A DNA stretch of 63,973 nucleotides, filler included, from Reclinomonas americana ATCC 50394 (taxonomy: Eukaryota), in NCBI GenBank assembly GCA_048213135.1. It is 7 parts of 3 records of this genome, joined end to end, with 100 filler letters (N's around TTAATTAATTAA, not from the genome) between each part and the next. Parts side by side here need not be neighbours in the genome. Positions count along the whole stretch, not along the records: positions 1 to 27,337 come from PS015111.1; positions 27,438 to 32,473 come from PS015111.1; positions 32,574 to 48,653 come from PS015111.1; positions 48,754 to 55,602 come from PS015112.1; positions 55,703 to 60,517 come from PS015112.1; positions 60,618 to 62,389 come from PS015112.1; positions 62,490 to 63,973 come from PS015122.1. The stretch is one strand, 5' to 3'. This document shows, in pieces, positions 8,581-63,946 of the stretch. The first letter of the stretch is position 1. Each line of letters starts with the position of its first letter. The notes beneath the pieces are model-generated. The model made no database searches, was not told the DNA's origin, and saw only the letters and a list, made by a program, of their open reading frames with translations. A program made the position numbers and the translations under genes.

Positions 8581-11500
8581 ATGAGCGACTCATGGTGGTA
8601 CTCTCGCACCGCTCTTCCCGCGCAAGCACTCACCCATGCGCTCACACTGGCCACGAATGACACACTCGCGATCATAAGAGTAAGTGAGAGAGGGAGAGAC
8701 ACAGAGAAGAGAGAGAGTGTGTGTGAAAGAGTGTGAAAGAGTGAGTAGTCAAGGCGACGACTTAGGTGACGACTTAGGCGTGAGTGTGAGAGAAGAGAGA
8801 GAGAAATGTGAGAGAGGAGAAAGACTGCTCTGTCTTANNNNNNNNNNNNNNNNNNNNNNNNNNNNNNNNNNNNNNNNNNNNNNNNNNNNNNNNNNNNNNN
8901 NNNNNNNNNNNNNNNNNNNNNNNNNNNNNNNNNNNNNNNNNNNNNNNNNNNNNNNNNNNNNNNNNNNNNNNNNNNNNNNNNNNNNNNNNNNNNNNNNNNN
9001 NNNNNNNNAGTGGAGGGGAGGGTAGAGGGAGAGGGAGAGGTAAAGGGGGGAGAATAGGAACAATCTTCAGGTTGATTGACGTTGTCTCTCCTTCTGTTTT
9101 GTCTGCCTGCTCTTCTTCTTCTTCCTCTCCTCTTGCTCTTCTTGGTTACGTGTTGGCGTGTTAGTCGCTGTCTTGTTCTCGTTCCTCCTCATCTTCTTCT
9201 ACTCTTCTCCTGCCTCTTCTTCCTATACCAGCGCTTCTTCTTCCTCCATTCTTCTTCTTCCTCCATTCTTCTTCTTCCTCCATTCTTCTTCTTCCTCCAT
9301 TCTTCTTCTTCCTCCATTCTTCTTCTTCCTCCATTCTTCTTCTTCCTCCATTCTTCTTCTCCGTAGACTTGTCCGTGTAGCTTTCATCTTGATCTTGATG
9401 TTGTCTCTCCTTCTGTTTTGTCTGCCTTCTCTTCTTCTTCTTCTTCCTCTCCTTCTCCTTCTCGTGCCTCCTCATCTTGCTGCTGTCTCTTCCTCTCCTG
9501 CCTCGTATTGCTCTTCTACGCCTTTCCTGCCTTCTCCAGTCTTCTCCTTCTTCGTCCTCGTTATTTACTTGTCCTTGTAGCTTTTCATCTTGATCTTGAT
9601 GCTGTATCTCCCTCTTCCACTCTTCTATTTCCTGCTCTCCTCCATGGACAAGAAAAGATGGAGGACGAGGTTAAAGAATAGAGAGGGGCAGAAGAGCAAG
9701 AAGAAGAGCGAGACGAAGACTGCCTTTGCGTGCCTGTCAAACTCTGGCGGAAGTATGGCACCGGTGCTCACTTTCTTGACGATTTTAATCACTGCCTGTT
9801 TCTCTTGCCCGGCACCTGTGCATTCTTCCTCCACCCTCCCTCACCCTTCTCCCCTTCCCCCTTTTCCCCCTTCCTCCCTTCCTTTTTACAGTTGCTGGCC
9901 CTCACCTCCGACTCCGGTCGCCTCACCCTCCTCGACCTCTCGCCCACCCGCTCCGCCGACGGCGCCGACGACTCGCTGGGCGCGCCCTCCGCACCACGGG
10001 TCGCCCAGCACATTGCTGTCGGGCCCGCCGGCACTCACCTCCGCGTGCCCAACCGGCTGTGCAGACCACACGAGTCGTTGCGTGTCTGATTGAAAGAGAA
10101 GGAATCGGAGACGACAGTACGCAGCGAGCAGAGTGGCAGGCAGTGTGATGGACGATGATGATAGGTGGTGACTGTGAGAGATTGGAGGGTCGAACGATCG
10201 AGCGAGCAGAGTGATAGTGATCTAAGAGAAAAGAGAAGGAATCGGAGACAGCAGTACGCAGTGAGCAGTGTGAGAGAGAGTGAGTGAGAGAGAGAGAGAG
10301 ATTGTAACGCTTATTTCCCTCACACACCCTCCTTTATCTGCACAGTGGCCGCGTGGTGGCGCTGGCAGCGGCGGAAGAAATGATTTCGCTGCACTTTTTC
10401 GAAGCCGCTTCTCGCAAGTTCTCAGAGGAGGTGCGGGTGTCGAATGAGACAGTGCTTCTGCACAGCTTCTGCGCCTCATTCTTTGTTGCAGGCCTATACA
10501 CTGACGGTGTCGGGTGTTCTCCTCGATTTGTGTTGGCTTCCACGCGCTGCCGATTCCTCTGTGTTGTCGCTGGCTGCCCTCTCTGTGAGGTGCGTTGTCT
10601 ATGTTTTCGTACCTCTCTCCCGTGTCTCATCCCTTTTCGCACAGAACGGGCCACGAAACCTACGACATCCAGGTGTGGGATGTGTTTCTCGAGGACCAGA
10701 GCGGCAAGCTGCGGCGACGTATGCGCTTCGGTCCGGAGGCTCCGCGCACCGCAGTGTTGCGTTAGATTCTGCCAATTGACGTCTTTCACGGACAATATTT
10801 CCTCCTGTGCCTTCTCCTCCCTTTCTCCGTTGTCCTCATTGCCTTCACGCCATCTCTGCCTTTCCTCTCATTCTGCGCCTTCTCCTTTTCCTGATTCACT
10901 GCGTTCTCCTCGCTGTCATTCATCCTCTCTGCCTTTCCTTTCATTCTGCGCCATCTCCTCCTTCACTTCTCCCTCTTCACTGCCTTCTCATCCTCTCTGC
11001 CTTTTCTCTCCTTCTGCTCTTCATCGCCTTCTACAGCTTCACTGCGGTCTCCTCTCTTTTTTCATCCAGTATCTGTCTCTCCTCCTGTGTGCTCTCCTCC
11101 TTCGCTACGGTGTCTGGTCTGCCTTCACGTCATCTCTACTTTTCTCTTCTTGCCGCATTCTCCTTTTATCGCCTTCTCCTCCTCCTGTGCCTTCTTCTCG
11201 CTGTTTTTCATCCTCGCTGAATATCATCGTCTCTGCCTTTTCTCTCCTCCTTTGCCTTCTCCCTCTTCGCTGCCATCTCATCCTCTCTGCTTTCCTCCCC
11301 TTCTCCTCTTGATCTCCTTTCCCTGATTCACTGCGTTCTCCTCGCTGTTTTTCATCCAATCTCTGCCCCTCTCCTCCTGCGCGCTCTCCTCCTTCACTTC
11401 TTTCTCTTCACTGCCCTCTTATTCTCTCTGCCTTTCTCTCCTTCTCCTCTTCGTTGCCTTCTCCTGCTTCAGTGTGTACTCCTGGTTGTTTTTGCACCCT

Positions 11501-18707: not shown

Positions 18708-21700
18708 TCACTTGACGCCGCTGCCGGGTGAATCGCCTGACGGTGCTGTCGACTTGGTCGCTGAGGTACTGGTGGTGGTGGTGGTGGTGGTTGACGAGGA
18801 CGACGACACAATGGTGGCCGAGAGATTCGACGAGGCGTACGCAGCGAAGCGATTGGGTGGCGCCTGCTTCGGCGTCGTCACCGGCGTGCGATTCGGCGGC
18901 GTGCCGGTGATGGTGCCGGGTGTGCGACCGCCGGTCAGCGTCGTGCCGAGAATCGAGGTGGCCGGACTCCGATACGAGTTGGAGATCATGGCCGCGACAT
19001 GCGCGCGCAACGGCGCGTCGTCATCGTCGTCGTCGCCGCCGGCCGTGGGTGAGCCCGCCGGACTAAAGTTCGGCGTGGCACTTCTCNNNNNNNNNNNNNN
19101 NNNNNNTTTTTTCGCATGGCAGTGTCGACGGTCAAGGAGGCCACCGATGAACGTGAGCGGTTGCAGGAGTTGGTGAATGCTTTGAAGGCGGCCTACATGA
19201 ATCAAGGCCAGACACTGCGGTCGCAGAAGCGAACGCTGGTCGATGTTGCGTCTCCTCCACCATCTCTTTGAGTGCGTGTGTTTCTCACTTGCTCTGTGGC
19301 GCATCAGTCGCTGCACAAGAAGGAGCGACAAGTGAACCTGGCGACGGCCGAGTCACCCACGCTGCGCACGAACGAACGATCGTCGCAAAAGCCGGCGGGT
19401 GACACGAGTAGCAATACGTCGCCAGTTTCCTCGCAGAGCTCCACGCGCGGCCGCTCACCGACCGCCATGTTGGAGATGATGGGCAGCGGTGGCAGCAGTG
19501 CTCACCGGCCCGTCTCACGTTCCTCATCGAATCCGGCACGCGCGGCGCCACCCGCAGTGAACCGGTCNNNNNNNNNNNNNNNNNNNNGAGTCAGCGTGAA
19601 GCACATCGCACAGATCAAAGCATTCGCACGCAACAGTGCTTTTCGTATTTCTCCGTGACCAATCGCAACTCCTCGCGCACCATGTCGAGGCGGTTCTCGT
19701 AGTGCTACAACCATCGAGAAACGAAGTGAGTTCCTTCTCTCCACACCGATAGCATTCTCTCGAGCGCCACCAAACGCAACCGACGAATCCTGCTTGTAGG
19801 CCGCCAATCGCACACTCAGCTCGCCCTTCTCCTCCACCAAATCCTTTATCCTGTTCTCCAGCTCAGCATTCATGTCCTCCAGTGTGCGGATGCGCTCCTG
19901 CAGCAGGCTCGTCGTGTTGACAAACTTGTCGTTGGCGTCATGGAGGGCAGAGGCGGCCTGCGCGCAAAAAAAGAAGAGTTGAGGAAGGGTGGGTGAGGAG
20001 AGGCATCATCTCTCCACGTCGGACATCTAAAACTACGACCCGCTCGACATCTCTTTCCCCACATCCTTCTCAGCTTGTTCTCCATCTCAGCTCTTTGTCA
20101 ACGTAGTGCATTTTTCCTCACTCTCTTCTCCTTTTGTTCTTGCCTCTATCTCATCTCTGCTCTCCTTCTTCACTTCGATTCTCCAGTCTGCCATCTCCTT
20201 CACCTCTCCTCCCATTCTCTCTCTTCTTCCTCTCCCCTGCTGTTCTTTACATTGCTCTCGGCTCTCAAATCTCACCGTTCCAATTTCGTTTCTCCATTCT
20301 CCTCTCTTTCTTCTCTCTCTCTCCCTCCCCTATCTTCTCCGTCCAGAGCTAACCTCTTCTCTTGCCTCCTAATTGCTGTCGGATCTCTCTGTTCCTCTCT
20401 TCTCTGATCCTCTCCTAATCCTGTCCTACCCCTTAACATTGTAAGTCTCTTCTCTTCTCACACTCACCGCCTCTCCATTCTCTTTCAGTTACTCTTACCT
20501 CACCGTTTCTCCATTCTTCTCTCCCCTCCTATCCTTAGCCCCCACCCCTTCTCCTTTTCTTCCTCTCTTTCACTCTCCTCCCCCTCATATCCTCAGCCCC
20601 CACCCCTTCCCCTTTTCCTCCCTTTCCCTCTATTCCCCTTTATCCTTCCCCATCCGCACCTCCCTCAGCTTCTCCTGATCCTCCGCATTGCTCTCCCGCA
20701 ACAACTCCAGCTCATCCTGCAACTCCTTGATACTCTTGCGCAAATCCGCCACCACCGCCGACAGCCCAGTGACCTCGTCGGACAGCATGCGATTCTCCTC
20801 GCGGAGAACATTGTTGGCATCCTCCTTGTTCTGCATGTCGGTCGTCAAGCGCGCCTTGTCGGCCTCGAGACGTGCATTGGCCTGCGCTGGCGACATGAGA
20901 CGAAGACTGCTCCCCTTCATCAACCATTCTCTCCTTTGCCCACGCACCTTTTCCATTTGTCGCACAGTCTCCAGATGCTCGGCCAAGCGATCCTTGAGGA
21001 CCTCCAGCTCACCAACACGTCTGAGGGCGTCGGCCAGTCGCTTGTTCAGCATGCTGTTGTCTCCCGTCAGCGTCTCATTGGCCACCATGGCCGCATTCGA
21101 CGACTCCTGCAGCTGGGCGTTGCGCGTCTCGAGATCGGCCACCTTGTCCGACAGTGCAACCAGCTGCACCGACAAAGGGGGAACAAACGAAAGTGTCGGT
21201 CGCATACCAGCTTTGCCAGAAAGGAAAACGCACACACAACCGCACCGTCATCTTCTCCTTTGCTCGTTCCTGGATGAGAGCCTCCTTGCCGCGAGTGAGT
21301 CGTTCCACAGCATCGCACAGCTCCACGCGCTCCTCCGACAAGGTCTTGGTGCGCTCCGCCTGCTCCGCTGCCGTCGCCTCCAGTTTTCGACACAGCGCCT
21401 CCACCTCCTCGATGCGCTTCTGGCGTGCCGACGCCCATGCCTCCGATTTGGTCTGTCGTTCCCGCGTTTCGGCATGTCGAGTGCGCTCGTTCTCCAGCTG
21501 GGATTCCAACTGTAGGCGCAGGAAATTGGTGAGTGGCAGGATTCATCCCAGAGAAACCAACACACATTACCTCGGCGACTCTCCGATTGGCCGTCAACAG
21601 ATCACGCTCGGCGATCTGCTGCCCATCGCGCGATTGCGACAGCTCCTGTTGAACGCGCCCGACCGCCTCCTCCGCCGCCAAAGCCTACAGTGAGACGAGT

Positions 21701-24700
21701 GAGACTCAGGAATCGCTGACCACTACAATTCTCCACTCCCATGCATCTCATCACCTTGGCGCTGGCGCGATCACGCTCCCTGGTCCGATCGGAAACTTGC
21801 GCCTCGAGCGCACGAACCATTGATTCGAGTCGCGACTGCATCTCGTTGTAATCGCTCTCGGTGCGCGTCTTCTCCGACGACTGCTGCGACAACTGCTTTT
21901 GCAGCTGCTGCGACAGAGCACCGAGACGCGCCGTCTCGCGATTCGCCTCCTCCAGCCGCACAGTCTTAACACGAATGGTCTCCGCGTGCTCCGAAATCGT
22001 CGTCGTGTGAGTGCGCACGGTTTCGCGCAGGGTGGTGATCTGCGTCAGGTGCTTGTCAGATTCCGGGCAGTGATGAGGAGGGACCAAGGTCGAATCGCAA
22101 ACCTCCAGCTCGAGTTTCTGACTCTGTTCGTGCACCTCCGCCAGCTGCTTCCGCAGCGCCCCACTCTCGGTTCTGAGCATCTCCAACTGTGCCACGGCAA
22201 TGAGGGAGAGGTGAAACATACACAACACAGAGATCATGCCAATACCTCTCGCTGCCGTCGCTCCGCATCACTGGCCGCCGTGCGCAGTTGCGACTCAAAC
22301 TTGATATTGGCATCGCGCACCTCGCGCAGCTGCTTCTGCTGATTCTCCAACTCGGCCTTCAGTGCGTCAATGTGCTCGTTGGCGCTGCGTGCCTCGCGCA
22401 CTCGAGCCGCTCGCTCCGTCTCCAAGTCGCCCACGACACGACCTGGAAATGAGAGCGAAGGGTGAGGTCAACAAAAATGGAATGCTCTCTTCTGCAACAC
22501 GAAACGTCTCTCCGACTTGGCCTCCGACGCCTCCTTCTCCGCCGCCTGCTGTCTCTGATGCGCCGCCTCGCACTCTGCCTCGGCCTTGCTGGCACGCTGT
22601 CGCTCCTCCACCAACAGGCGCTCCAGCTCGCCGCGAGTCGACTGGTACGACTCGGAGGTTCGCGTCTTATCCGTCTTCAACACATTCAGCTGACCCTCCA
22701 GCGACTGCACCAGCGTCTCGAGACGCGACACTTCGTGCCGCAACGCATCGGCCGTCACCACACGCTGCCGCGACTCGGCCTCGGAGACCGCCAGACGCTC
22801 ACGTGCGTCGGCCAAGTCGGCGCGCAGCGACTCGATTGTGGTGGCGTGCGTGGTCGAAGAGGTGCTGAACTTGCGCACATCTAACTCCAGGCGCGACACG
22901 CGGTTGCGATGCTCCTCGACCTCCTTCACCAGTGCCTCGCGTTCACTCGACAGGTTGCGGATGCGAGCCTTGCGGACGGGAGGAGAGGCAAATGCGCGTG
23001 AGTTTGGGGGAAGCAAGCAACAACAACAAAGTGATCCTCCTCACCTCAGCCGCCTCCTTCTCCGCCTCCCGCGCACTCTTCTCCGCAATCAAGTCTCGCT
23101 CCAACTGCGTCACCGACTGCTTGACGCGTGACCGCAGATCGAAAGCCTCCTTCTTGTGCGAGTCGCGCTCGCTGGCGACCACCTTGACGCGCTCGAGTAC
23201 ATCCTGCACCTCTGTCTGCCGGCCTTGTCGCTCGCCCTCCAATTCGGCGGTGGTGCGCTCGAGGTCAGCGGTCATCTGTGGGGGGTGGAGAAGGGGAAGG
23301 GTGGGTGAAGGGGGAGAAGGGGGGAGAAGTGAAAAGAGAAGGGGACGGAAGAAGGAAAGGNNNNNNNNNNNNNNNNNNNNNNNNNNNNNNNNNNNNNNNN
23401 NNNNNNNNNNNNNNNNNNNNNNNNNNNNNNNNNNNNNNNNNNNNNNNNNNNNNNNNNNNNNNNNNNNNNNNNNNNNNNNNNNNNNNNNNNNNNNNNNNNN
23501 NNNNNNNNNNNNNNNNNNNNNNNNNNNNNNNNNNNNNNNNNNNNNNNNNNNNNNNNNNNNNNNNNNNNNNNNNNNNNNNNNNNNNNNNNNNNNNNNNNNN
23601 NNNNNNNNNNNNNNNNNNNNNNNNNNNNNNNNNNNNNNNNNNNNNNNNNNNNNNNNNNNNNNNNNNNNNNNNNNNNNNNNNNNNNNNNNNNNNNNNNNNN
23701 NNNNNNNNNNNNNNNNNNNNNNNNNNNNNNNNNNNNNNNNNNNNNNNNNNNNNNNNNNNNNNNNNNNNNNNNNNNNNNNNNNNNNNNNNNNNNNNNNNNN
23801 NNNNNNNNNNNNNNNNNNNNNNNNNNNNNNNNNNNNNNNNNNNNNNNNNNNNNNNNNNNNNNNNNNNNNNNNNNNNNNNNNNNNNNNNNNNNNNNNNNNN
23901 NNNNNNNNNNNNNNNNNNNNNNNNNNNNNNNNNNNNNNNNNNNNNNNNNNNNNNNNNNNNNNNNNNNNNNNNNNNNNNNNNNNNNNNNNNNNNNNNNNNN
24001 NNNNNNNNNNNNNNNNNNNNNNNNNNNNNNNNNNNNNNNNNNNNNNNNNNNNNNNNNNNNNNNNNNNNNNNNNNNNNNNNNNNNNNNNNNNNNNNNNNNN
24101 NNNNNNNNNNNNNNNNNNNNNNNNNNNNNNNNNNNNNNNNNNNNNNNNNNNNNNNNNNNNNNNNNNNNNNNNNNNNNNNNNNNNNNNNNNNNNNNNNNNN
24201 NNNNNNNNNNNNNNNNNNNNNNNNNNNNNNNNNNNNNNNNNNNNNNNNNNNNNNNNNNNNNNNNNNNNNNNNNNNNNNNNNNNNNNNNNTGGGATAGAAT
24301 ATGTTGGACGAAGAATAAGAGTTGAATAGCGAGAAAGGCAGGAGAAAGAAGAGAAGACGATCAAGAATTAGTTACAAAAAGGGCGAAGAAGACGATGAAG
24401 AGGAAAGAAGGAGAAGGACCAAGGAAAGAAGACAAAAGCGAAGAAGAAGAAGGACGAGAAGAAGAAGTACAAGAAAAAATACAAGAAGAAGTGCAAGAAG
24501 AAGAAGAAGAAGAAAGGAGAAGAATAGCGAGAACAACACGAATTGAAGAGGAAGAGCAAGCGTGAAGGGATCAGGAATTGAAGATGTCCAAAGAACAAGA
24601 ATGAACAGGGCTACCAGGAAGTCAGCCTGATGTCGAGGGGAAGAACTGTGAAAGCGATAGAATAATGAGGTCGATGGAGAAGCTGATGGTGGTGATGATC

Positions 24701-25010: not shown

Positions 25011-26724
25011 NNNNNNNNNNNNNNNNNNNNCTCACACCTCCCGCGCAGACCCTTCGCCTCCGCCTCAAACTTGACAACCTGCGCACGCAGCGTCTGCGTC
25101 TCGGCACGCACCGCCGCCTCCAACGCCGTCTTCTCCTCGAGTAGCGCACGCAAGCTGGACATTTCCTCGGACAGGGTGCGATTCTTGCCTTCGCCCTCGC
25201 GCTCCACCGACTGCCGCGCCTGCCGCTCCGACATGAGCGACGCCTCCATGCGCCGCACATTGCTCGAGTACTCCTCGATGGTCTGCTGCAGCGCCTGCAC
25301 ATCGGCACGCAGAGCATCGCGCTCCGCGGTGACGCTGCGAATGCGCGCCTCCAGATCCGCCGCCTCCGATGTGCGGGCGTCACGCTGGCCGGCCAGATCC
25401 GCCTCGAGCTCTTCAATCGAGCGTGCAAAGTCTTCGGCGGCCTTGCGCCACTCGGCCAGATCGCTCGTCAGCTGCTTCATCTCCTCGGCGGCCTCCACAT
25501 GCTGACGACGCTCCTCCTCGAGTTCGCGCTGCACGCTGTCGACAGTCGAGTCGAGCGACGAGCGTTGCACGCGCAGCTCCTCTGACAGCCGTGTCACCTG
25601 CTGCTCCAGCAGCGTCACGCAACGCCGTGCCTCCTGCAAATCGTCGTGCAGATTCGCGTTCTCCGATTCCAGGGTCGCGCACTGCGAACGAGCCTCAATG
25701 ATTTGCGACTCGAGCGGCGCGATGCGCTCACGCGTCTGCCACAACGACGCAGAGAGTGAGCCCAATAGGGGGAAGGTGGATGCAAGGCTGGCGGGTTGCA
25801 CTCACGTTTGCGTGTTCGGACTCGGCCGATCGCTTGGCCTCGGAGAGCCACACCGTCTGCTGTTCGAGCTCGGCAATGCGCGTGCGTGCACGCTGCAGGT
25901 CATTGTCGAAAATGTTCTTCAAGCCGTCCAGCTCGCGGTTCTTGGCCTCCAGTCGCTGCGCGGTCGCCTCCGCCACCGCCTGTCGTTCCTTGGCCTGTGC
26001 GCAGTCGGCCTCGAGACGTCGCCGCTCGTCACTGACGCCCGAGTGCTGGCCCTCCAGTGCCACCTGTGAAGGTGGCAAGAGGGTGAAAAGAGGGTGACGG
26101 CGAAAGAGAAGAGGCAAAGATGGAGAGAGGGGGAAAAGGGGGAGGGCAAGGAAAGGGGAGTGAGAGGGAGAAGGGGAGAGGGAGCGCGTTTGTAAGAAAG
26201 AGAGGGTGTGAATTGAATAGGTGAGTGAGGGAAAGAACACAGGGGAGAGGGAAGAGAGAACAAAGAGCAAGGGGACAAGGAGAGAAGCACACACAGCAGA
26301 GACTGGGATATTAAGGACTGAAAGGGCGAGAGAGAGTGGTCCACTCTCTACCTTCCACTACTTTGTCTCGCGATTCCCCTTGTACTCACCAGTCGCGCGC
26401 GCAGCTCCTCCACCTCGCGTTCGGCATCCTGCCGCACCTTGTCGGCCTCCGCAACCCTCGCCTCAGTGTGCGTCAACTTGGTCTCCAACACCGCCACTCG
26501 CTCGCGCGACGACACCACATCCAAGTCCAGACGACGACGAGCAGTGCTGATGGCTGACAGGTCGGCCTCCAGGTTGCCAATGCGCTCACGGCACTGAATC
26601 AAGTCCGCTTCCAGAGCCGATTTCTCGGCCTCCAGCTCCGACGAGCGAAGGCGAGCGGCGTTTACTTGCGACTCGCTCAGGGCGACACGCTCGCGGGCGC
26701 TGACCAGCTCCAAGTCCAGTCGGC
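18708..26724 (-). CDS. Long coiled-coil protein (rootletin/myosin-tail-like composition), 5' incomplete, multi-exon, gapped
   Basis: Successive minus-strand exons rich in E/L/R/A heptads, separated by GT-AG introns. Ser/Thr/Pro-rich C-terminus ends at the TGA at 18710-18708. Confidence 0.75.
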
Positions 26725-29030: not shown

Positions 29031-29164
29031 CATGAGGGTACAACACAGGAATCGCGCCGGCACTGTACGCTGCGTGTCCTGGCCCACGTCACACACACTC
29101 TCATCCTTTTTCAGCGCGCTCACCACTCCGCAGCGCTGTGCATTCTTCCTTCCGTCTGCACTCC

Positions 29165-33929: not shown

Positions 33930-38301
<4,372 letters not shown>

Positions 38302-44685: not shown

Positions 44686-47031
44686 ATGAGCAACCGTCGC
44701 GCCGCCGACAGCGAAGCCCGACGCCCCCTGCTCGATGACGTCAGCGACGGAGGAGGCGGTAGTGGAGGGCTTCTTGTGCCGCCCGCCTCACCCGCTGTTC
44801 CATTGCCGCCTCATTCGCCGACGGATGAATTTGCGTCGACCGAGAGCGCACTTTCGTTGCCGTCGTCGGCGTCGCGACGTTCGCGGCGAAGTGGCTCGTT
44901 GCGCGGTCCTGTGCTGGCGAGCAGCGCTGAGGCGTTGGGAGCGGCGTTTCGTGGGACAGGCAAGGATTCGTCGATTGGTGGTGGAGATGGGAGCGGAAGT
45001 GGGGGTGATTCGCATCATTATGATCATCATGCGACGAGGAGAGGGAGTGCGGGGAGTGCGAGCAGTGGGAAGAGTCCACCGAGGAGGAATACGAGGGGAT
45101 ACTCGACTGTGGGTGAGTTGCGGGGGAAGGGTGAAGGGAGAAAGGGAAGGGGAAAGGGTACACGCAGAAGAGAGAAGCTCGCCCTTGCAGTTCGTGCGAT
45201 ATCTTGTCCTCCTTTCATTGCCATTGTAGTTTGTGCAGCTCAAAACCTATCCTGTGTATCCTTTTGTACACTCTCGCACACACTCCCTCTCCCTCTCTCA
45301 CACACTCAGATAGAGAAGCTTGCCCTTGCAGATCGTGTCACCTTGTCCTCCTTTCATTGCCATTGCAGTTTGTACAGCTGAGAACTTATCCTCAGAATCC
45401 TGTTTGCATACACACTCTCTCACACACTCTTACTCACTCCCTCTCTCTCACACTCAGATAGAGAAGCTTGCCCTTGCATATCGTATCGGTCTCACGTTGG
45501 CAGAGAAACGATCTCTGCATTCCTGTTTTTCTTAGCTGACTGTCATTGCGATGTTTGATCGTGCAGCCGAGCAAAACGGAATTTGTATCTTTTGCACTGC
45601 TTGTTCGTCAGTCGTCGTGTGCTGCTGAGAACTCGCATCTTTCTCTGGCCACCCACTCTGCTCATTTCTCTGGTTTTCGTTCCATGTGGCTCTTGATTGT
45701 AGAGTCTGTGTGTAAGTGTTGGACAACGTTGATCTGGATTCTCTCTCGTCTCCTTCTGGGGCCGTTCATTGCGATGTTTGATCGTGCGGCTGAGAAACGG
45801 AATGTCTATCGTTTGCATTGCTTGTTCCACACGATTCCCATTGTCGTTTAGTCACTGTGCAGCCGTGAGCACTCGTCCTTTCCCTTACAGCTCTTTTGTC
45901 TGCAGTTCTTTCGCACTCTTCTTGGTTCCTTCTGTCGTGTAGTCTGTGCGTGCCGAACAGGAGAACGTCTGCTGCTTGGAACGCGTTCGTCTAGAATCAT
46001 TGCCTCTATGGCTCGTGCTTGCTGCCTTCCGTTGCTCCGTTCGTGCAGCTGAAATGCAGAATCTCTGTAGTCCCCACTGTGCTCGTTTCTTGAGAATCCT
46101 TGTTTTGTGTCTCGTGCTGTCAATGTTTGTCGCTTCGTGCGCGCAGCTGCGAGTGCTTGCTTCTTGTGCTGTTCTTTGTCCCTCTTCACTGTGCCCCTCA
46201 CTTCTCGTTTTTCTCATCCTCTCGCCTGTTGTACTCGTGCTGTCGATCTTCTTTCATCGACATGTGCTACTGTGGAGACCTGCTCCTCCAGTTCCCACGC
46301 TATACTTCTGCAACGCGTGCGTCTCGTGAAGTCGTTCCTCGGCAACTCTTTTACTATTTGTCGTTCTGTTGCTCAATCCACGACTTGTCGCATGTGGCGC
46401 TTTCCCGAATCTCTCTGATCTCCTCTGTTGCCTTCTCCCTCCCTCCTCCTCCCCCCTGTCCACATGAGTGTCCTCGATTCTTCATGCGTGCCGATATCGT
46501 CTTGATGTAGAGATTCTCTTGACGCGTGCGTCATTAACCGAGAATACTGAGCACGTTGGTTTTCATTGTTTTAACAGAAATGCGCGACGATTACCCAAAG
46601 GGCAAGGACGACGGAGTTTCGTGGCAGCCTCTCTGCCTTCTCCATATAATTGCATCCACCGCTCACAATTTTGCGCAGTCATGTTGGAGACGACAATGGT
46701 GGTTGTCGTTGCAGGGCTGGATTGTGGCCACGCTGGCCGGCGTGGTACTGGGCATTCTGGCTGGTATTGTGGGACTGGGTGTCGAATGGGCCGAGGCGAT
46801 CCGCGGCGGCGTGTGCACCAAGTGGTGGTACCTGCCGCACTATCTGTGCTGCTTAGAATATGGTGCGTGGTGTCGCCTCTGCTGATAGTTTGTCGACATT
46901 ATCATCGCTGACTTGTTTCGTGCTCTCTCTCTCTCTCTCTCCTCTTGTTTGTCTGCTTGCCTGTCATTCTCTGTCTGTCTGTCTTTCGTCTGCCTGCCAT
47001 TCTCGTCTTGGTCTCTCTCTCTCTCTCTCGC

Positions 47032-47095
<64 letters not shown>

Positions 47096-47131
47096 NNNNN
47101 NNNNNNNNNNNNNNNCCCGTACCGTACCTCC

Positions 47132-47173
<42 letters not shown>

Positions 47174-48573
47174 GCTGTCTCTCTCTATACTTCTCCTTTT
47201 TCTCCTTCTCTCCTCCCGTTCCCTATTCCTTCTCCTCTCTCTCTTTCCCTTCTCCTCTCTCTCTTTCCCTTCTCCTCTCTCTCTTTCCCTTCTCCTCTAT
47301 CTCTTTCCCTTCTCCTCCTTCTCTCCTCTCTTTCCCTTTCCCTATCTCCTCATCTTCCCCTCGTGCCACAGCCGAGAAGCGCGACATGATCGCCACCATG
47401 TCCGGCGCCGGCCTGGCTGTCGCCTTCGGAGCCCCCGTCGGTGGCGTACTGTACACGATTGAGGAGGCCGCATACTTTTTCTCGCACAAAGTCCTGTGGC
47501 GCTCCTTCTTCGCCTCGGTGGTGTCGGTGATCACGCTGCAGCTGATCCACCCGAGCCTCTCTGGCAAGCTGGTGCTCTTCGAGGTCCGCTACCGCCACCA
47601 GTGGCATTGGTTCGAGATCTGGGTGTTTGTGTTGCTCGGCATGATTGGAGGTGCGTGTGAAACAGAGAAGGGGGTTTGTTGGATGCGATTCTCACCGCGC
47701 TTGTGGCGCAGGCGTTCTCGGCGGTCTCTTTTGCCGTCTCAGCACGGCGTGGTGCCGACTGCGAAAGAGGACATCGTGGTGGGCATCGTCGCCAATCATC
47801 GAGGTGCTCATTATTACGCTGATCACGGCCTCGATCAATTACTTGAATCCGTTCACCAAGTTGCGTCGTCGCGCACCTTGAGGATTGAGAGATGCAGTCA
47901 CTCATTTTGTGATCCGTGCAGGGGAAGCGCGCTGAAGCTCATGTCGGCGCTGTTCGACGAGTGTGACGATCCGCATCAAGTGCTGAAGAACCATTTGTGT
48001 CTGTTGCGTGTGCGGATGGGGAAAGAAGAGGAGGGGGGATGGAGGGAAAAGAGGAGGAGAAATGGGTAAGAGAGAAGCTGACTGCCTCTCACTTGTACTC
48101 TCTGCGCTTTCTCTGCTGCCCCCTCGCCTTTCTCCTTCTCTCATTTCTTTCTTTTCTGCACTCGCCTCCCCTTTTTCCTTTTACTTACACTCAATTTCCT
48201 ACTCGCCTCTTCTCTTCCCTTGTCCTATCCTCTCTCACGACCGACTCCATGAGGCTCGCCCGCTTCGCCCTCTCCCTCTCTTTTTCTCACCCCTTTGCTC
48301 TTCTGACACAGATACACGGACACAACATGGCTCATCTGGACATTGGTATTAGCCGGCCTCTCCAAGTACATTCTCGCAATCCTTACTTTTGGCGTCAAGG
48401 TACGGGTATCCGCACCACGTATAGCGTGGTCTCCGTGTGCTCAATTGTCAACCCACAGGTTCCCGCTGGTGTCTTCATCCCTGGACTGGCTATTGGCGCC
48501 ACGTTTGGGCGTGTGGCTGGTCTGCTCATGCGTGAGCTTGTAGAGTTGCGTGCAGACAAGATTAATTCATTCA

Positions 48574-48653
<80 letters not shown>

Positions 48654-48803
48654 NNNNNNNNNNNNNNNNNNNNNNNNNNNNNNNNNNNNNNNNNNNNTTA
48701 ATTAATTAANNNNNNNNNNNNNNNNNNNNNNNNNNNNNNNNNNNNNNNNNNNNTGTGCATGTGTGTGTTTGTGCCCGTCATTCACGCTGTCTCTCTCACT
48801 CTT

Positions 48804-48853
<50 letters not shown>

Positions 48854-50940
48854 ATGAGTGAGTGAGCGTATGCTGCTTGCATCTGCCAGTGTGCGCCCTT
48901 CACCACCACCAGAGTGCCATACTCACCCCCTCTCCCTCTCCCCCTCACACAGATCTCATCGCGGCTCACCCATTTTCAACGAGTGCGCCGGCAGTGTGGC
49001 CTGCGTCATCCCCGGCATCTATGCGCTCGTCGGTGCCGCAGCGACGCTGGCCGGAATCACCCGCATCACGAGTTGCGTACTCGCCCGCAAGCATGTTAGC
49101 TGCGCACATTGTGCTCACGTTACATTGCGTGCACAGTCGCCCTCACGGTGGTCATGTTTGAGTTGACGGGCGGTCTCGAGTACATTGTCCCCTGCATGGT
49201 CGGCATTCTCGTCAGTCGTCTGGTCGCCGATCTCATTGCACCGAAATCCATGTTGCGTCATCCATGTCACGTCAGCGCCCGATCATTCACCCCTCGCTCA
49301 CACCCACGCACAGCTACGAGTCCATGATCGACATTTACAGCATGCCCTACATTGGTCCGCAGGCCTCCACAGAGACGGTGCAGACCACTGCAGGTGCGGT
49401 GGTCGAAGATCAAGTGCTCGAGGTGCTCAGTTCGTCGGGCATGACGGTCGAAGACATTGGTTCGTGATGGTGACGAGTTTGATGGAAGGAGGCCGTTGGG
49501 TGGTATCATTATCTCACTTCCTTTATTTGTTTCGCAGAACGCCTGTTATCGCGGGGCCGCCATTTCCGTGGCTGGCCTGCCGTCGACTTCCAGAACAGCC
49601 CCATCGGCTACGTCACGCGGGAGCGACTGGAGGAGGTGTTTAGAGAACAATGCACTGGCGCCAAGGCGGATGCAGTGGTGTATTTTGCGGACGCGCCGGC
49701 CAATCTGGACGGCACGTACGACCTGTCGGAGTCTGTCGACGCGGCGGTCATGCAAATTGGAGCAGCGGCGTCGCTGCGTGAAGTGCATCGTTGCGTGGGG
49801 GGAGAAGGGAAAGGGAGGGGCGAAGGGAGAGAGAGAGAGAAGGAGAGGGAGAGAGAGATTCCGTATTCCTCGCTTGATGCGACTTGATGTGCAAGAGAGT
49901 GGGTACCTGTGGATAGTTGACGAGTGATGTGCATGTGTGTTTATGGATGTAGTGTGCATTCTGGTTGTCAACCTCGCTGCCCCTTCCCTCTATAATAGTA
50001 TCTGGCGTGTTCTTTGCAGTGCTGTGTGGGTCTGTTCTCAGTTCATCTTCTCTCCCTGTCTCTCACTCTCTCCTCTCCATAAAATATCTGTGTCTGTTCT
50101 TGCAGTGCTCACCTTTTCTTGCGCTCTGCCTCTCATTCGCACCTCTGGGTCTGTTCTAAGTTCATCGTCTCTCTCTCTCTCTCTCTCTCTCATTCCCTTT
50201 CTTCGTGTATTTGCCCTCGCTTGTCCTTTCCAACAACTTGCGACGTTCCTGTCCTCTCTCAGTGTGCCCCCACTTCTCCCTCTCTGCGTGCGTGCAGTCT
50301 CTCTCTCTCTCTCTCTCTCTCTGGCCAGCGTCGGCTCACTATTCATTTTCTTCAACTGTAGATATCTGCGTATCCGTTTCCATTTCTTGTCGTTCTTCAC
50401 CTGTAACGCCATGCATCAGTCTCACTCTCCCTGACGTATTCTGTGTCCCTTTTCCTCTATTCCAACTCTTTCTGTTTTGCAGTTCATATCGTGCGTGCTG
50501 CACGTCACTTACTCTGTCTTCCTTTTTTTCAACCTGTTGCTTGCTATCATGGTCCCTTCCCCCGCCTCCCTTTCACACGAATGAGCTCTGTGCCCTTTCT
50601 CCTTCATCCCCTTATTCATTCTGCCATCACTTCCCCCCCTTTCCCCCTTTCCCCCTTTCCCCCTTGCCCCCTTTCCCCCCCTCTCCCCCTTCTCCCCCCT
50701 TCCTCACCCTCCCCTCCCACAGGCATCTTCACCCGCCTCGGCGTACGGCACGCCATTGTGGTCGACCGGGGCAGTGCCATTGGCATCATCACCCGCAAGG
50801 ATCTATGGCGCCTCCTGCAAGACATTGAGCACGGCCTCTACCACATGCGCCCGGCGACGTCGGTCGGCGGCACCTCCATCGCACTAGACGACGAAACGAC
50901 GAATGAGTCCTCCGATCAGCGCAATCGCCGACGACCGTGA
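44686..50940 (+). CDS. CLC chloride channel/H+ antiporter (ClC-3/4/5/Gef1-like) with CBS domains; some exons missing in gaps
   Basis: AGLAVAFGAPVGGVLYTIEE, LWRSFF, GKLVLFEV, TFGVKVPAGVFIP, PGIYALVGAAA, VVMFELTGGLEYIVP, IYE and the CBS motif FTRLGVRH...GIITRKD. Confidence 0.95.
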
Positions 50941-51630: not shown

Positions 51631-54600
51631 CTAGAAACGAAAGACCAGGTCGAACAGTGAACGCAAATCGTTGATGTTGGTGTTGCTGCCGCTGTTGCTG
51701 CTGCTGTTCTGTTGCAGCACACCGTCAATCCGGCGACTGAACTGATCACTGCCTACCTTCCGACACAGATGTTCCGCCGACACGTAACCAGTCGCCGGCC
51801 TGCGGCTCGCGATCGCATGAGCAAGAGCAGTCACGTCGTCCTTGACTTGCGCTCTCTCCTTGTCACCGACGGCATCCATCAGGACACCTGATAGGGTCAC
51901 CGCAAGGTCAACGTTGCCTGGATGCAAAGCGTTCAGCAGTACTTGACCTGTCGCAACGAGCCACACACTTCGGTAAGCAGACTCCCAACGTGGCACTTAC
52001 CTCTTTTATCACCACCGGGTTCGACAAGCGAATCATACCACATGCATAGAAGGATGCGCATCGTCCAAGTACACACACAAAAACAAAAGAACAGCAAACA
52101 AACATATATACACACACTCTCTCACTCACACAGAGGGAGAGAGTGAGAGGACTGCTGCAACATGACGAAGCGCCACTATTGGCTGCTGTGTTCTGCACCT
52201 TCTCTTTCTCTCTCTCTGTCTCTCAGCATCTCACAAAAGAGCACTCTTTCCCCCTACACCACTCTCAGTCGAAGCGACCGACTCCTTTGCTCTTGCTATC
52301 TCGACTTCAAAGGTCTTCATCTTTCCACTCCAACTTGAGCACGCAACTCGTCCGCAGAGGCATGTCACAGAACGTCGGTCCGTAGTACACCGACGCCACA
52401 GTCTTGTCGATGACGATGAAACGACGAAGCTCTTCGTCGGTAGGGCGTATGCCCTCGCTCACATGCTGCCAGGTATCCACACCTACGTCGGGAATGGCAT
52501 GCGGCGACGACAGCACGGCAAGCCACGACGCCGATGAGTTGTTCTCAATGTAGCGTCCAATCTGCTCATCACCACCATGTCTCAGCACGACATGCACACT
52601 TGCATAGCTGCACCCAGTTGATAAGCCACTCACCTCACACGTACGCTGCATCGCGCGCTCAACAGCTCCGGCATCAGCAAAGAGCAACTTGCACTGCTCG
52701 AGAATCACAACCTGTTTCTTGCCATCCGTCTCCACCACCGTCATGATGTCGCATCCATAGGCACCGTCGCTAGTCATCCGCACGACCGGAAGCATCTCGT
52801 TCGGCTGACGGACTTCCACTGGTACAGTCGCTTTCGTCTGTTGTTTCGACATGTCAGTCAATGTGCATGCAGCAGGTGCGGACTGCGCGAAGAAAAATCA
52901 CCTTGCTGGCAGCCTCCTCCTTCGTCAACCAAGAGGGTGACCAGCGCGGGCTGACCATGCTCACAGTCCCTCCGCAAAGCAATTCGGAGTTCCACAACAG
53001 GTGGCGACCCGAAGGACCTGAATAAAGCAGACCGCCGATAGGCACACAGGTTACGGAGCGCACATGAATCTGTCAGACACATCATACCTATTTTCGCACA
53101 CTCCAAACGAAAGACAGTAGCCAGCCGGGGCGCACGTATCGCGCCGGCCAAGTGTCGCTCAAGTTGCAAGGCAACATACGCGGTGCGCCATTCTCCAAAC
53201 GCCTCAAACGCCTTCAAATCGCTGCCTTCCACTCCGAGGCTCAAGCTGGCAACACACGCGGCCAGCTGACCAATACTGCCCGCTGCCTCCATGATGAACG
53301 CCGGTGGCACGAACACTCGGGACTTTATGTCACTCGAGCGATTAGCGGCATAAACACACACTCGCACATACATACACACGCGGTGCTGCGATCGAGAGAG
53401 ACACACCTCACGGAGAATCGCATATCCATGTGACTCGGCCTCCTCAATGAATGCGGGCTCAACGACCTTGGCGTCAATCGCAGCCAACAGAATCTTTTCC
53501 GACACTGGCGGAGGCTTGTCAGAGCTGAATAAACTGTCGGCATCAACGTGAAGTTTCACGTCATCGACTGTCAGCAACACGTCCTCTGCGTCTCCAGCGC
53601 AGATAAGCAATTCTGTGCACACAATACAGCGGATCGACGAACAATGCACACGCAACGAGGGTTTCCGGCAGCAGTCTCCACCCTCAAGCACTCTGCAGCG
53701 GATTCAGGACAGGAGCTACAAAGAAAACACAGTACGAGAGTCGACGCAACCAACGGCAGCTGTGACCACCTCGATCTGAGATCGCGTCAAACAAGAACGA
53801 CTGTCGAGCAGAGTCCGCAGCGCTCGACTCGTTCGCCAGGCCACGCGAATCGATGCCGGGAGGCCGGCTGCAGTCGCGCCCGTACCTGCGTACTTCGTGG
53901 TTGGCATGCGTGCGCAAAGACACACACTTCGGTTCTGACCACTTGGCGAGCTGCCTCACTTTCAATAACTATTCTCTCAATCCGATACTCCAGCGCGCGC
54001 GACAATTCTTTGCTCACAGCGTCCTCTCACTGCTTGTGCCCAACGCTCTACTCTTCTTTCTTGGCGCTTTTAGTCACACGTGCAATTGCACAGAAAAGTG
54101 GCTACACGCACTCTTGTACGCAACTCGGCACAATCGTCTCGAATAATTGACGCATGAGCTCGTCTGTTTCCAGTGGAAGCAGTGGGATGCCGGGGACACG
54201 GTGGACCTTGACGCCGGAAAGTTCCGACAAAAGTTGTGCATCCACGGTAATGACGCCGGCAAGCATCGGCACCACAAGGGTCGGAGGTTTGCATACGTCG
54301 ATGAGGGCGTGCAACGCAAACTTGAGGCGCTGCCGACGGAAGCTCTGCGCATGGGAACCAGAGTAATGTTACCAGTGAGTTTGTCGTGGATAAGAGCGAA
54401 AGTTCACGTCGGTTGCAAATCAAGAGAACCTCTCTCGCTGAAGCACTGATTCTTAACGTATCCACTTCCCAGCTGTTGCACACAATCCGCTGCACGTCAT
54501 CCAGCAAGCAGACAACAGCCAATCTGCGAATGCAAGGTGATCAGGGACATCAAAGCTCATGGTTGCACTCGATAATACAAACTTGGCATCTGGCTTCAGC

Positions 54601-55434: not shown

Positions 55435-55469
<35 letters not shown>

Positions 55470-59500: not shown

Positions 59501-60517
59501 TCAAAATCCCTTTCCGAAGCATCGGAAACCCAGCACCTCCGCATCCTCCACCAAGAAACAACGCAGCACGATCTCCACCAGGCAGCGAGGATCCTCTTCG
59601 CCCTCTTCTTCCGCCATCTCCTGCACAGCATGCATCGCCGAACGAGCGAAGTCGAGCTCCTGTCGAGCCAGACCACACGGTGTAGACCACACTCGCACTG
59701 TTCTGTCATGACTGCCACTCACGATGTGCTGCCCATCGCGAGCGACGGCGACGAACGTCACACCCGCAGTGTGGCCTTCCAACCGTCGCACTTCTTCTCC
59801 GCTCGTAAGCGACCACACACGCACGGTCTTGTCAGCACCGCCACTCACCACATGCCGACCATCGGGGGTAACGGCGACTGACAACACCACCCTACTGTGT
59901 CCCTCTATCCGCCGCATCTCCACGCCACTCGCCATTGACAACACTCGAACTGCCATATCCTTCCAACTTGTCACAATGTGGTGACCATCGGGAGTGACGG
60001 CAACTGATATCACCATCTCAGTGTCTGCCTCCAAGTAACGCAACTCCTTTCCACTCGCCAGTGACCACACTCGGATTGTCTTGTCATCGCTGCAGCTGAC
60101 CACTTGCTGACCATCGGGAGTGACGGCCACAGACCACACCGCTCCAGTGTGTCCTTCAAACAGTCGCACCTCGACGCCACTCGCCACAGACCACACTCGC
60201 ACTGTCCCGTCATCGCTCCCGCTGATAATGTGCTGCGAATCGGGAGTGATGACGACTGTGCCCACCTCCCCCACGTGCCCTTCCAGCTGTCGCACCAAAT
60301 GTCCACTCGCAGCAGACCACATGCACACAGTAGTATCATAATTACCGCTCACAATGTACTCGCCATCAGGAGTGACAGTGACAGAGCACGCCATCGAGGC
60401 ATGCCCCTCCAACCGTCGCACTTCTTCACCACTCGCCAGTGACCACACTCGCACTGTCTTGTCGGCACTAGCGCTGACGATGAATTCGCTGTTGGGAGTG
60501 ATGGCGACAGATGACAC
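59501..60517 (-). CDS. Intronless WD40-repeat protein, paralog 3, 5' truncated by a gap
   Basis: Same repeat consensus and the same tail WSTPCGL.RQEL...EEDPRCLVEIVLRCFLVEDAEV. Confidence 0.92.
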   Translation of the reverse strand: MSSVAITPNSEFIVSASADKTVRVWSLASGEEVRRLEGHASMACSVTVTPDGEYIVSGNYDTTVCMWSAASGHLVRQLEGHVGEVGTVVITPDSQHIISGSDDGTVRVWSVASGVEVRLFEGHTGAVWSVAVTPDGQQVVSCSDDKTIRVWSLASGKELRYLEADTEMVISVAVTPDGHHIVTSWKDMAVRVLSMASGVEMRRIEGHSRVVLSVAVTPDGRHVVSGGADKTVRVWSLTSGEEVRRLEGHTAGVTFVAVARDGQHIVSGSHDRTVRVWSTPCGLARQELDFARSAMHAVQEMAEEEGEEDPRCLVEIVLRCFLVEDAEVLGFRCFGKGF

Positions 60518-61101: not shown

Positions 61102-61362
61102 CTACTCACCATGCCCGCCAATCGACCCCGGCGCTCTCCTCGCCCAACTGGCGCCACCTCGCTGTCCACCACCACGCGCCTCCTTCAGCATGTTGACAAT
61201 ACCATACAGCAGCGGCCTGATACACGCGATGTGAGACTGGGAAGCTCGCCAACTTAAACACACCAGAGTGGGTACGCAACACAGAGCCCGATCGCTGCGT
61301 CTCCGACACATGCAGCTGCTGTGTGACGAATCGACGATCCAGTGACTCGGGCTGACCGCTCT
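61102..61362 (-). CDS. FOPNL: FOPNL/FOR20/CEP20 (LisH centrosomal protein), 3' exons 61362-61281 and 61216-~61102
   Basis: ESGQPESLDRRFV..QL.V...VPLLYGIV matches the C-terminal half of the family. Confidence 0.8.
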   Translation of the reverse strand, partial: RAVSPSHWIVDSSHSSCMCRRRSDRALCCVPTLVCLSWRASQSHIACIRPLLYGIVNMLKEARGGGQRGGASWARRAPGSIGGHGE

Positions 61363-62585: not shown

Positions 62586-63946
62586 CTGGCACGTTCCGCC
62601 GCGGTGCACCGGGAACCTCGGAGACCTGCATGGTGTGCTTTGAGGAGCTGCCGGGTCCGGAGCTGGCGTCGCTGTCGTGCGGACACATGTTTTGTGAGAC
62701 GTGCTGGCAGGGCTTCTTGGCGGCGTCTGTGGACGAAGGTGCGTGTGTGTGTGTGTGTGCCCTGCGGAACGAGTGCGGATGTGCTTCTCACTCGCAAATT
62801 CGGCACAGGTTTCGGCTGCATCCACAAGACGTGCATGCATCCCGACTGCGACGTGATTGTCGACAGCCAGGCGTGGGAGGAGCTCGGCGACGAGGCGACC
62901 GTCGAAAAGTACAAGATGTTCCTGGCTCGCTCGTTTGTGCAGGATGTTGCGTGCCCGTGGCGTCTGTTGATTGCACCATCCCAATTGTTGTTTTCTAACG
63001 TGGAGACACAGAACCCCAAACTGCGATGGTGCCCGGCGCCTGGCTGTGGCAAGGCCATTTTCGTCAGCACCACCACTCGTCTCACCGTGCGCTGCCAGTG
63101 TGGTCTCGATTTCTGGTACGCAATTCAATCTCTCGTGCCTTTAGCGATGCCGCCGCCAACTCTTCCCCCTGTCGCGCACAGTTTCCAATGCAACGATGAG
63201 GCACACGGGCCGGCTACGTGCGAGGAAGTGAAGAGGTGGGTGAAGCGCGAGACCGACGACGGCGCAACAGCCGACTGGATGTCGGCCAACAATGTCAAGA
63301 ACTGCCCGTTCTGCACGGTCAAAGTGTTCAAGGTGCGCCGTTTTGTGTTTTCTCGCGTCATTCGGTCGCCGGTTACTTACTTATCACAATGCTCGTCACG
63401 TCAACAGCAAGACGGCTGCATGAGTATGACGTGTTCGCAGTGTCGGGTGCGTTTCTCCCCTTTGTTGCTTCATGCTTCTTGTGTAGCGACTGACTGACTG
63501 ACTCTTGCGTGTGCAGAAAGTTGAGCGTTTCACCTGCTTTGCGTTCGGTGGTGGTGTAGAACACTCACTTTGTCGGTCTGTCTCTGACAGGAATTCTGCT
63601 GGGTGTGCCTCGGAGGTTGCGTGTGTGCCGTTGTTGTCGTCACACTGTGTGAGAGATGTGTTTGTCACACGCGTTTGTTCTCTGTCACAGCTGCACACGG
63701 TCACTTCTTCGAGGAGTCAGGGTGCGCATCATCGCCCTCGTTTCCCAACTCTCTCTCTTTCGGGTTGCTGATTGCATCATAACACGCACAGTTGCAACCG
63801 TTACAAGCCCAACAAGGATCCGAGGCTGAAGGAGACCAAGGAATCGCTCGAGCGCTTCACGGTACGCGTTGTCGTCGTCATCCATTCGCTCTCTTCTCGC
63901 TCACGACTGCTCTTGCCTGCCAACCATCACGCAGCATTACTACGAG
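62586..63946 (+). CDS. Ariadne-family RBR E3 ubiquitin ligase, partial at both ends
   Basis: RING1 CMVCFE..LSCGHMFCETCW..CMHPDC, IBR WCPAPGC..VRCQCG..FCFQC..EAHGPATC, RING2 KNCPFC..GCMSMTC..C..EFCWVC..H..CNRY, and SLERFTHYYE. Confidence 0.93.

Follow-up and report, generated by a model that had tools for sequence, protein, structure and literature searches.

A GTTGCGT class of 5' splice sites in a 64-kb stretch of the Reclinomonas americana genome

The DNA analyzed here, hereafter the window, comprises 63,973 nucleotides (nt) of Reclinomonas americana ATCC 50394 (assembly GCA_048213135.1), in which seven parts of three records are joined end to end, and the subject of this study is the 5' splice sites (donors) of its introns. 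Gene identities were obtained by applying Pfam to the long open frames of the window, and three of these genes carry the present analysis:

34.3-38.3 kb (+): V-ATPase subunit B
46.7-50.9 kb (+): CLC channel
62.5 kb to the end of the window (+): RBR/Ariadne ligase

Ordinary donors in the window read G|GUNNGU, with the other positions variable, and a second class of introns starts with an invariant GUUGCGU without needing a G at the last exon position (-1). This suggests that one cell recognizes intron starts in two different ways. The GTTGCGT donors had been noticed in a first-pass annotation of the same DNA, which had not described the split between donor classes at the -1 base.

Introns placed by homology

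Junctions were placed by scoring every donor/acceptor pair within approximately 24-45 nt of a junction and aligning the resulting peptide to homologues, with no splice-site rule imposed. At conserved junctions, homology fixes the intron length, and only a single GT-AG pair matches it. In total, 23 junctions were placed in V-ATPase B, CLC, and Ariadne, 9 with GTTGCGT donors and 14 with ordinary donors; an Ariadne junction near 62739 was excluded from this set, as a single homologue could not fix its location. The peptide anchors cited in the first-pass annotation (PHND|IAAQ, AAMG|VNME, KSI|YE, and VQD|NPK) were all recovered by the homology scoring. The nine introns of the GTTGCGT class, all on the plus strand, were as follows:

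35749..35820 (+): V-ATPase B (PHND|IAAQ), 72 nt, phase 0; sole GT-AG pair of that length, GC-AG option 10.8 lower
35911..35978 (+): V-ATPase B (AAMG|VNME), 68 nt, phase 0; best unconstrained length 68 nt, unique GT-AG pair
47860..47921 (+): CLC, 62 nt, phase 2; score 67.2 versus 63.3 for GC-AG, in a weakly conserved stretch
48003..48311 (+): CLC, 309 nt, phase 2; weak homology, with the downstream exon join LSKYILAILTFGVK-VPAGVFIPG fitting homologues
48545..48952 (+): CLC, phase 2; 158.7 versus 155.3 for GC-AG; spans an N/TTAATTAATTAA linker, so the length is not real
49072..49136 (+): CLC (GITRIT-I-ALTVV), 65 nt, phase 1; 199.3, next GY-AG option 184.8
49252..49313 (+): CLC (APKS-I-YESM), 62 nt, phase 2; best unconstrained pair is the GT-AG pair (116.8)
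49790..50722 (+): CLC, 933 nt, phase 1; 66.0 versus 56.0 for GC-AG
62946..63011 (+): RBR/Ariadne (VQD|NPK), 66 nt, phase 0; best unconstrained pair is GT-AG (151), from one homologue only, P0213

The 14 ordinary junctions, placed by homology unless indicated, were the following:

34352..35262 (+): V-ATPase B, AAG|GTGAGC
35534..35608 (+): V-ATPase B, AGG|GTGGGT
36201..37121 (+): V-ATPase B, GAG|GTGTGT
37294..37378 (+): V-ATPase B, CCG|GTGAGT
37546..38061 (+): V-ATPase B, TTG|GTGAGA
38192..38255 (+): V-ATPase B, AAG|GTTTGT
38302..38309 (+): V-ATPase B, donor GTG|GTGAGT, acceptor past a gap
46863..47371 (+): CLC, ATG|GTGCGT
47651..47711 (+): CLC, GAG|GTGCGT
48400..48458 (+): CLC, AAG|GTACGG, read off the tblastn alignment and the frames
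49460..49537 (+): CLC, TTG|GTTCGT
63116..63181 (+): Ariadne, CTG|GTACGC
63333..63407 (+): Ariadne, AAG|GTGCGC
63447..63590 (+): Ariadne, CGG|GTGCGT, enclosing the GTTGAGC at 63520

Removal of the GT-AG intron restored the reading frame and the conserved protein at 9/9 class junctions and 14/14 ordinary junctions (13 with a known acceptor). Judged by these protein alignments, the class introns appear to be genuine GT-AG spliceosomal introns. Treating them as GC-AG introns that start at GCGT, with GTT kept in the exon, adds a residue absent from homologues and scored lower, by approximately 3 to 13, at every class junction tested.

The base at exon position -1 divided the 23 donors into two groups. 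All 14 donors with a -1 G carried G at +5 and followed the ordinary G|GTNNG form in 13 different heptamers, whereas the 9 donors without it all read GTTGCGT and none carried G at +5, as had been claimed for the unusual class (Fisher P = 1.2e-6 for -1 base against class). The GCGT core was present in 3/14 ordinary donors versus 9/9 class donors (Fisher P = 3.4e-4). The first-pass annotation had proposed, as its own test, a comparison with independent base frequencies at donor positions; for the 23 placed donors, these frequencies predict 0.35 GTTGCGT donors, against 9 seen (P = 3e-11). Its description of the unusual donor as an ordinary donor displaced by one U also holds: the seven-letter words G.GTGCGT (-1 to +6) and GTTGCGT (+1 to +7) differ at the second letter only, with intron G+1 taking the place of exon G-1 and G+6 U+7 taking the place of +5G +6U.

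The 3' ends of the two classes were alike. CAG acceptors were found in 13/13 ordinary and 9/9 class introns (22/22 homology-placed introns with a known acceptor), and a branch-like box of CTCAC/CTCAT/CTAAC type was present in 9/13 and 9/9, respectively. The CTCAC box lies 10-30 nt upstream of the acceptor, with C rather than a purine ahead of the A (e.g., 35790-35820 and 49105-49136), and the length ranges of the two classes overlap. Because the acceptor, the box, and the range of lengths are common to both, class and ordinary introns would, on these sequence features, use one spliceosomal 3' machinery. An all-against-all blastn-short comparison of the bodies of 18 introns returned only short low-complexity matches, the best (E = 0.003, 19 nt) between different introns, and the 9 class-intron bodies were no more similar to each other than ordinary-intron bodies are. 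When metagenomes were scanned for a CLC exon, 27 loci were recovered, none above 54% identity and none from a close relative; none of the intron positions in these loci fell exactly at a window intron of either class, the nearest lying at distances of 10 nt (49072) and 1-2 nt (47651).

The heptamer across the window

GTTGCGT occurs 26 times in the window, versus 8.46 ± 3.0 expected from 100 dinucleotide-preserving shuffles, of which the largest value was 19 and none reached 26. The sense strand of a gene holds 22 of the 23 copies lying in donor-blind gene calls, and 3 further copies lie outside any call. In a motif-blind scan, each of the 5,679 scorable GT sites on both strands was rated by the coding potential ahead of it, by the potential for reading through it, and by its best acceptor downstream together with the coding potential there. 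GTTGCGT was the top donor-like heptamer at three thresholds, with 12, 10, and 9 of the 26 copies passing versus a background of 6.8%, 3.3%, and 1.9% (P from 3.6e-8 to 7.6e-10). The same scan reproduced the dependence on the -1 base: GTnnGT sites passed at 20% with a -1 G versus 4-7% otherwise, GTTnnGT sites passed at 18-29% with a non-G at -1 and at 10% with G, and the remaining GT sites passed at 6-7% whatever the -1 base. GTTGAGT was not enriched; it has 8 copies, and the only one that passed as donor-like (1/8) lies inside an intron.

All 15 GTTGCGT coordinates in the first-pass annotation were found on the strands given, and their use as donors stood to differing degrees: nine by homology, 63616 as probable, and 52347 (-), 61280 (-), and 19780 (-) by coding continuity, while 10756 and 13878 were ambiguous. 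Two further probable donors, at 19245 and 53750 (-), were absent from that annotation. A -1 G was present in three of the six further probable donors (19780 (-), 53750 (-), and 63616). The copies outside the homology-placed set with an assigned status, together with the variants of the class, were as follows:

63616..63622 (+): probable GTTGCGT donor, -1 G, preceded by a 25-nt exon (EFCWVCLG) up to which the spliced model can be aligned with the RBR homologue P0213; no acceptor was found inside the window
19245..19307 (+): probable class intron, 63 nt, gene of unknown function; coding continuity 47.3, CTCAC and CAG, picked by donor-blind gene models
51888..52347 (-): probable class intron, gene of unknown function; open frame of 183 codons upstream, read-through potential 0.3
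53505..53750 (-): probable class intron, -1 G; acceptor 53505 or 52819, coding continuity
61217..61280 (-): probable class intron, 64 nt, upstream of a WD40 gene; CTCAC and CAG, coding continuity 25.6
19705..19780 (-): probable class intron, 76 nt, coiled-coil gene, -1 G, TAG acceptor; open frame of 75 codons upstream (score 30.2), with a 42-nt alternative favored by the informed gene model described below
10756..10762 (+): possible donor; weak upstream coding score
13878..13884 (+): possible donor; rivals 13916 and 14546 for acceptor 14607
1972 and 2550 (-): copies in the open frame of a retroelement, ordinary in-frame coding
25617..25623 (-): copy in a coding exon, no donor; read-through coding potential 26.7
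60038..60044 (-): copy in a WD40 coding exon (Pfam open frame 59504-60517), no donor; read-through coding potential 31.1
22443..22505 (-): well-supported class variant with a GTTTCGT donor, C at -1, 63 nt; coding continuity 70.6
46616 (+): predicted GTTTCGT donor, A at -1, from a gene model

The two GTTTCGT donors, 46616 (+) and 22505 (-), relate to the ordinary G|GTTCGT (49460) as GTTGCGT does to G|GTGCGT. Among the variants listed in the first-pass annotation, GTTTCGT at 22505 (-) was thus well supported, and GTTGAGT at 12466 and GTTTCGT at 14546 stay as candidates; GTTGAGC at 63520 is ruled out as a donor, being internal to the ordinary Ariadne intron 63447-63590. GTTGTGT at 34377 is a mere shadow of the true AAG|GTGAGC donor at 34352.

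Abundance was estimated with gene models. A Viterbi gene finder knowing only GT as the donor returned GTTGCGT as the commonest donor in each of three versions (6/60, 8/71, and 7/72), and a plain codon-usage gene finder alone was too noisy, with 60 introns, many of them false. A model informed of both classes gave 77 introns in genes scoring at least 40, of which 12 were dropped (7 in the retroelement and 5 in an antisense model), and 11 of the 65 kept had GTTGCGT donors. Once the junctions absent from the output of this model (48400 and 48545, six in Ariadne, 61280 (-), and 38302) were added, the class came to about 15 among about 75 window introns, an estimate that depends on a model informed of both classes and agrees with the rough fifth of introns proposed earlier. 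The proposed 6 of about 11 introns in CLC likewise holds: the class makes up 6/9 of the CLC introns placed by homology at or beyond 47651, and 6 of about 12 across the full gene. The share among homology-placed junctions (9/23) comes from three genes picked because homologues exist, with CLC alone supplying 6 of the 9.

Neighboring genes and assembly

The remaining identified genes of the window, also from Pfam, are listed below:

293-5932 (-): DIRS-like retroelement, a single 1,880-codon open frame encoding reverse transcriptase, RNase H-like, and tyrosine recombinase (Phage_integrase) domains
29036-30235 (+), 31192-32349 (+), and 59504-60517 (-): long single-exon WD40 open frames
~40.6-43.7 kb (-): intron-containing FtsZ gene, coding match at ~40.6-41.2 kb, matching solved FtsZ structures (best E = 1e-18)
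55.7-58.4 kb (+): TauD/gamma-butyrobetaine-hydroxylase-like gene

The retroelement looks intact along its stretch, and the three WD40 frames are possibly a paralogue family. The FtsZ gene presumably serves an organelle, consistent with a jakobid. No Rfam match, and hence no small nuclear RNA (snRNA) gene, was found within the 64-kb window, and a PDB search with the frame 63502-63768 gave no match. Spliced V-ATPase B was 89.6% identical to that of the jakobid Seculamonas ecuadoriensis across 403 residues, with Andalucia the next named match (83%); in the V-ATPase B tree, the window sequence is sister to Seculamonas (94/91) within a starred clade including Andalucia (96/94), which makes the source a jakobid or something close to one. 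The window is intron-dense, unlike Andalucia, whose genome paper counts 134 introns in 864 genes (PMC7050145).

GC content is approximately 0.53 across the window, which contains many N gaps. Six 100-nt spacers (27338-27437, 32474-32573, 48654-48753, 55603-55702, 60518-60617, and 62390-62489), each consisting of 44 N, TTAATTAATTAA, and 44 N, are artificial joins; one falls within a CLC intron, and the exons on both sides still match up. The final 26 C-terminal residues of V-ATPase B lie at 40075-40152 (-), between the gaps 38692-39463 and 40248-40548, and because this is the strand opposite to the rest of the gene, the contig 39464-40247 probably sits misoriented in the scaffold. Long (CT)n and (GT)n microsatellites occur within introns and past the CLC gene (48560-48650, 48800-48860, and 50160-50340), and the sense strand of the window genes is rich in T and C.

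Recognition of the GTTGCGT donors

A near-invariant, information-rich 5' word in a minority of introns, read by a separate snRNA, is the hallmark of U12-type introns, whose motifs are an RTATCCTT-type 5' word and a TCCTTAAC-type branch site. The window class resembles them as a minority with a near-fixed 5' word beside a degenerate majority. Its 5' word is GTTGCGT instead, and because the CAG acceptor and the CTCAC-type branch box are shared with ordinary introns, the class is not a U12 system. Introners and introner-like elements provide many introns with shared sequence, whereas the window class shares seven bases only. The GTTGCGT class is best filed as an abundant, invariant form of the known non-canonical-register donors. 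In the passages of PMC4856993 on the shifted-register human sites of Roca and Krainer 2009, every pair between donor and U1 is moved by one position, with G+1 in the place of G-1 and the cut still at GU; the same geometry is implied for the window class by the one-base displacement between its word and G.GUGCGU and by its lost need for a -1 G. The human sites differ, however, in being rare and matched to canonical U1: the validated non-canonical registers, when pooled, account for 1.5% of 201,541 sites, and the shifted ones depend on a long AAGUAU-type match to canonical U1 (same passages), whereas the window class, with its invariant GCGU core, covers about one intron in five and, by the predicted duplexes, would not bind canonical U1. 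Table 3 of the same paper lists the bulge +2/+3 register of Roca et al. 2012 with 54-68 predicted human sites, which resemble an ordinary donor with an extra U after GU but keep the -1G:C9 pair, in contrast to the window class. Within Discoba, the account of U1 in PMC12621601 describes two U1 genes in the diplonemid S. specki that differ in the donor-pairing 5' end, the variant carrying a stretch of C with comparable complementarity to the same donor logo and tied there to no separate donor class. This offers a precedent in Discoba for a second U1 5' end. In the openly accessible literature, supplements excluded, no description of a GUUGCGU donor or of a large shifted-register class was found in any organism, and no splicing paper matched the words GTTGCGT, GUUGCGU, GTTGCG, or GUUGCG. 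Passages on jakobid introns, including those of the Andalucia genome paper (PMC7050145), contained no donor consensus.

Duplex energies were predicted with unmodified-RNA parameters and the human oligonucleotide of PMC4856993, with neither pseudouridines nor proteins, and compared with two other words (medians, kcal/mol):

Canonical U1 oligonucleotide: ordinary donors -7.9, all in the standard register anchored at C9/C8/A7; class donors -1.8, no consistent register; 400 random GT sites -2.1
Test word with G,C at positions 5-6: ordinary donors -8.6; class donors -7.5, 8/9 in the +1 register; 400 random GT sites -5.1
Full complement of GUUGCGU: ordinary donors -5.5; class donors -11.6; 400 random GT sites -4.3

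With the human-type U1 oligonucleotide, the class duplex was stable in no register. Because textbook U1 is predicted to bind the class no better than random GT sites, the reader RNA probably has G and C opposite +5 and +4, and the relaxed interaction suggested in the first-pass annotation is unlikely to suffice if U1 is of the textbook kind. As for the shifted or bulged register that it had invoked, a shift by one base is the better fit: with U bulged, pairing would still gain from a -1 G, which 0/9 class donors have. Our tentative preference is therefore for a U1-type RNA that would read the class in the +1 register, with G and C opposite +5 and +4, this RNA being either the organism's own U1 or a second variant. 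The 5' end of such an snRNA would pair with GUUGCGU sites one nucleotide off the standard register, and cleavage would still be directed to the sole GU on offer. U6 reads +5G/+6U, and under any version of this reading it would have to fit in one more nucleotide between +2 and the G+6 U+7 with which it pairs. The organism's U1 may deviate from the textbook sequence at positions 5-6; alternatively, there may be a further U1 variant complementary to GUUGCGU.

Recognition by textbook U1 only is possible but doubtful. Under this explanation, U1 would bind weakly in a shifted or U+3-bulged register, U1 snRNP proteins or the U6/U5 check would complete recognition, and the heptamer would be invariant by sitting at the recognition threshold. 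Such registers have been proven for human sites, as the register sections of PMC4856993 report, canonical U1 suits the ordinary donors of the window well (median -7.9 kcal/mol), and GUUGCGU resembles an ordinary donor plus one U. In predicted duplexes, a model class sequence does adopt the +3 bulge register, albeit only if its -1 base is G, from which a bulge register would gain and which none of the nine placed donors has. Canonical duplexes, moreover, were at background (-1.8 versus -2.1 kcal/mol), with an inconsistent register in 9/9. The identity of the +5 base further casts doubt on canonical U1 as the reader: A would pair better facing U1 nucleotide 5, yet C is invariant (9/9) and GTTGAGT is not enriched (1/8 pass).

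A bolder form of the preferred U1-type reading, which we regard as rather unlikely, is a major spliceosome with two parallel donor RNAs, in which ordinary U1 and a U1-like snRNA complementary to GUUGCGU would each serve their own intron class and share U2, the branch site, and the acceptor. It is improbable that a sequence-specific RNA-binding protein reads GUUGCGU and brings in the spliceosome mostly without U1 pairing. The invariance of all seven positions (9/9) and the lack of stable canonical U1 pairing would suit a protein reader, but no candidate protein was found, a protein would cover nucleotides that U6 needs to pair with later, and the word is the ordinary U1 target shifted by one base with one letter changed, as expected of an RNA reader and a coincidence for a protein. 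Nor do we know of any large class of introns in which a protein reads precisely the positions +1 to +7. Still less probable is an inherited heptamer, with the class introns being decayed copies of one introner-like gain family and the 5' end its remnant. The identical 7-nt starts and their uneven spread across genes (6 of about 12 CLC introns versus 2/10 in V-ATPase B) are in keeping with inheritance, but class bodies are no more alike than ordinary ones, the flanks of the placed junctions showed neither terminal repeats nor target duplications, and an unselected word would have drifted like the bodies, so a reader would still be required. Because the bodies are unrelated beyond short low-complexity matches (best E = 0.003, 19 nt), the class is not an introner family, and the mass intron gain suggested in the first-pass annotation finds no support. 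Finally, although 4/26 copies are plain coding sequence, several others are ambiguous, and the junctions are known from sequence comparison rather than RNA, it is scarcely credible that no true donor class exists and that the junctions are misplaced, are GC-AG introns with an exonic GTT, or reflect a chance excess of a GC-rich word, given 26 copies versus 8.5 expected, lengths set by gap-free homologue alignment with one GT-AG solution each, GC-AG alternatives that always score lower, motif-blind enrichment (P = 3.6e-8), and the sense-strand placement of 22/23 copies in donor-blind gene calls.

Several points weigh against a U1-type RNA in the +1 register as the reader. A sole U1 with G at position 5 predicts a preference for C at +4 in ordinary donors, and there is none: in a wider predicted set of 50 ordinary donors, the +4 base was A in 17, T in 15, C in 14, and G in 4. 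Three probable class donors carry a -1 G, so the rule is that G is not needed rather than that G is excluded. The predicted energies carry the simplifications given above (unmodified-RNA parameters, a human oligonucleotide, and no proteins), and we infer the register and the reader from junctions that rest on homology and coding continuity. The sample is one 64-kb window with 23 junctions from three genes, CLC giving 6 of 9 class junctions. To our knowledge, the U1 5' end is also nearly invariant among eukaryotes, which sets a low prior for a deviant or second U1.

Few rules of eukaryotic gene expression are as conserved as the pairing of G|GURAGU with the 5' end of U1, and we know of non-canonical registers only as rare mammalian exceptions. 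A fifth of introns with neither a required -1 G nor a +5 G, and with one displaced fixed word, would mean that a single cell can stably recognize donors in two separate modes. If the second-U1 reading is true, 5' splice-site recognition would be split inside the major spliceosome, distinct from U11/U12. The class would also allow one to study, in a natural setting, how the cleavage site is chosen where U1 and U6 differ in register. For gene prediction, genomes of this kind call for a two-class donor model, as approximately 20% of introns would be missed or misplaced by a single weight matrix. Jakobids are important for reconstructing early eukaryotes, and their nuclear introns, which have barely been described, may hold a second way of marking where an intron begins.

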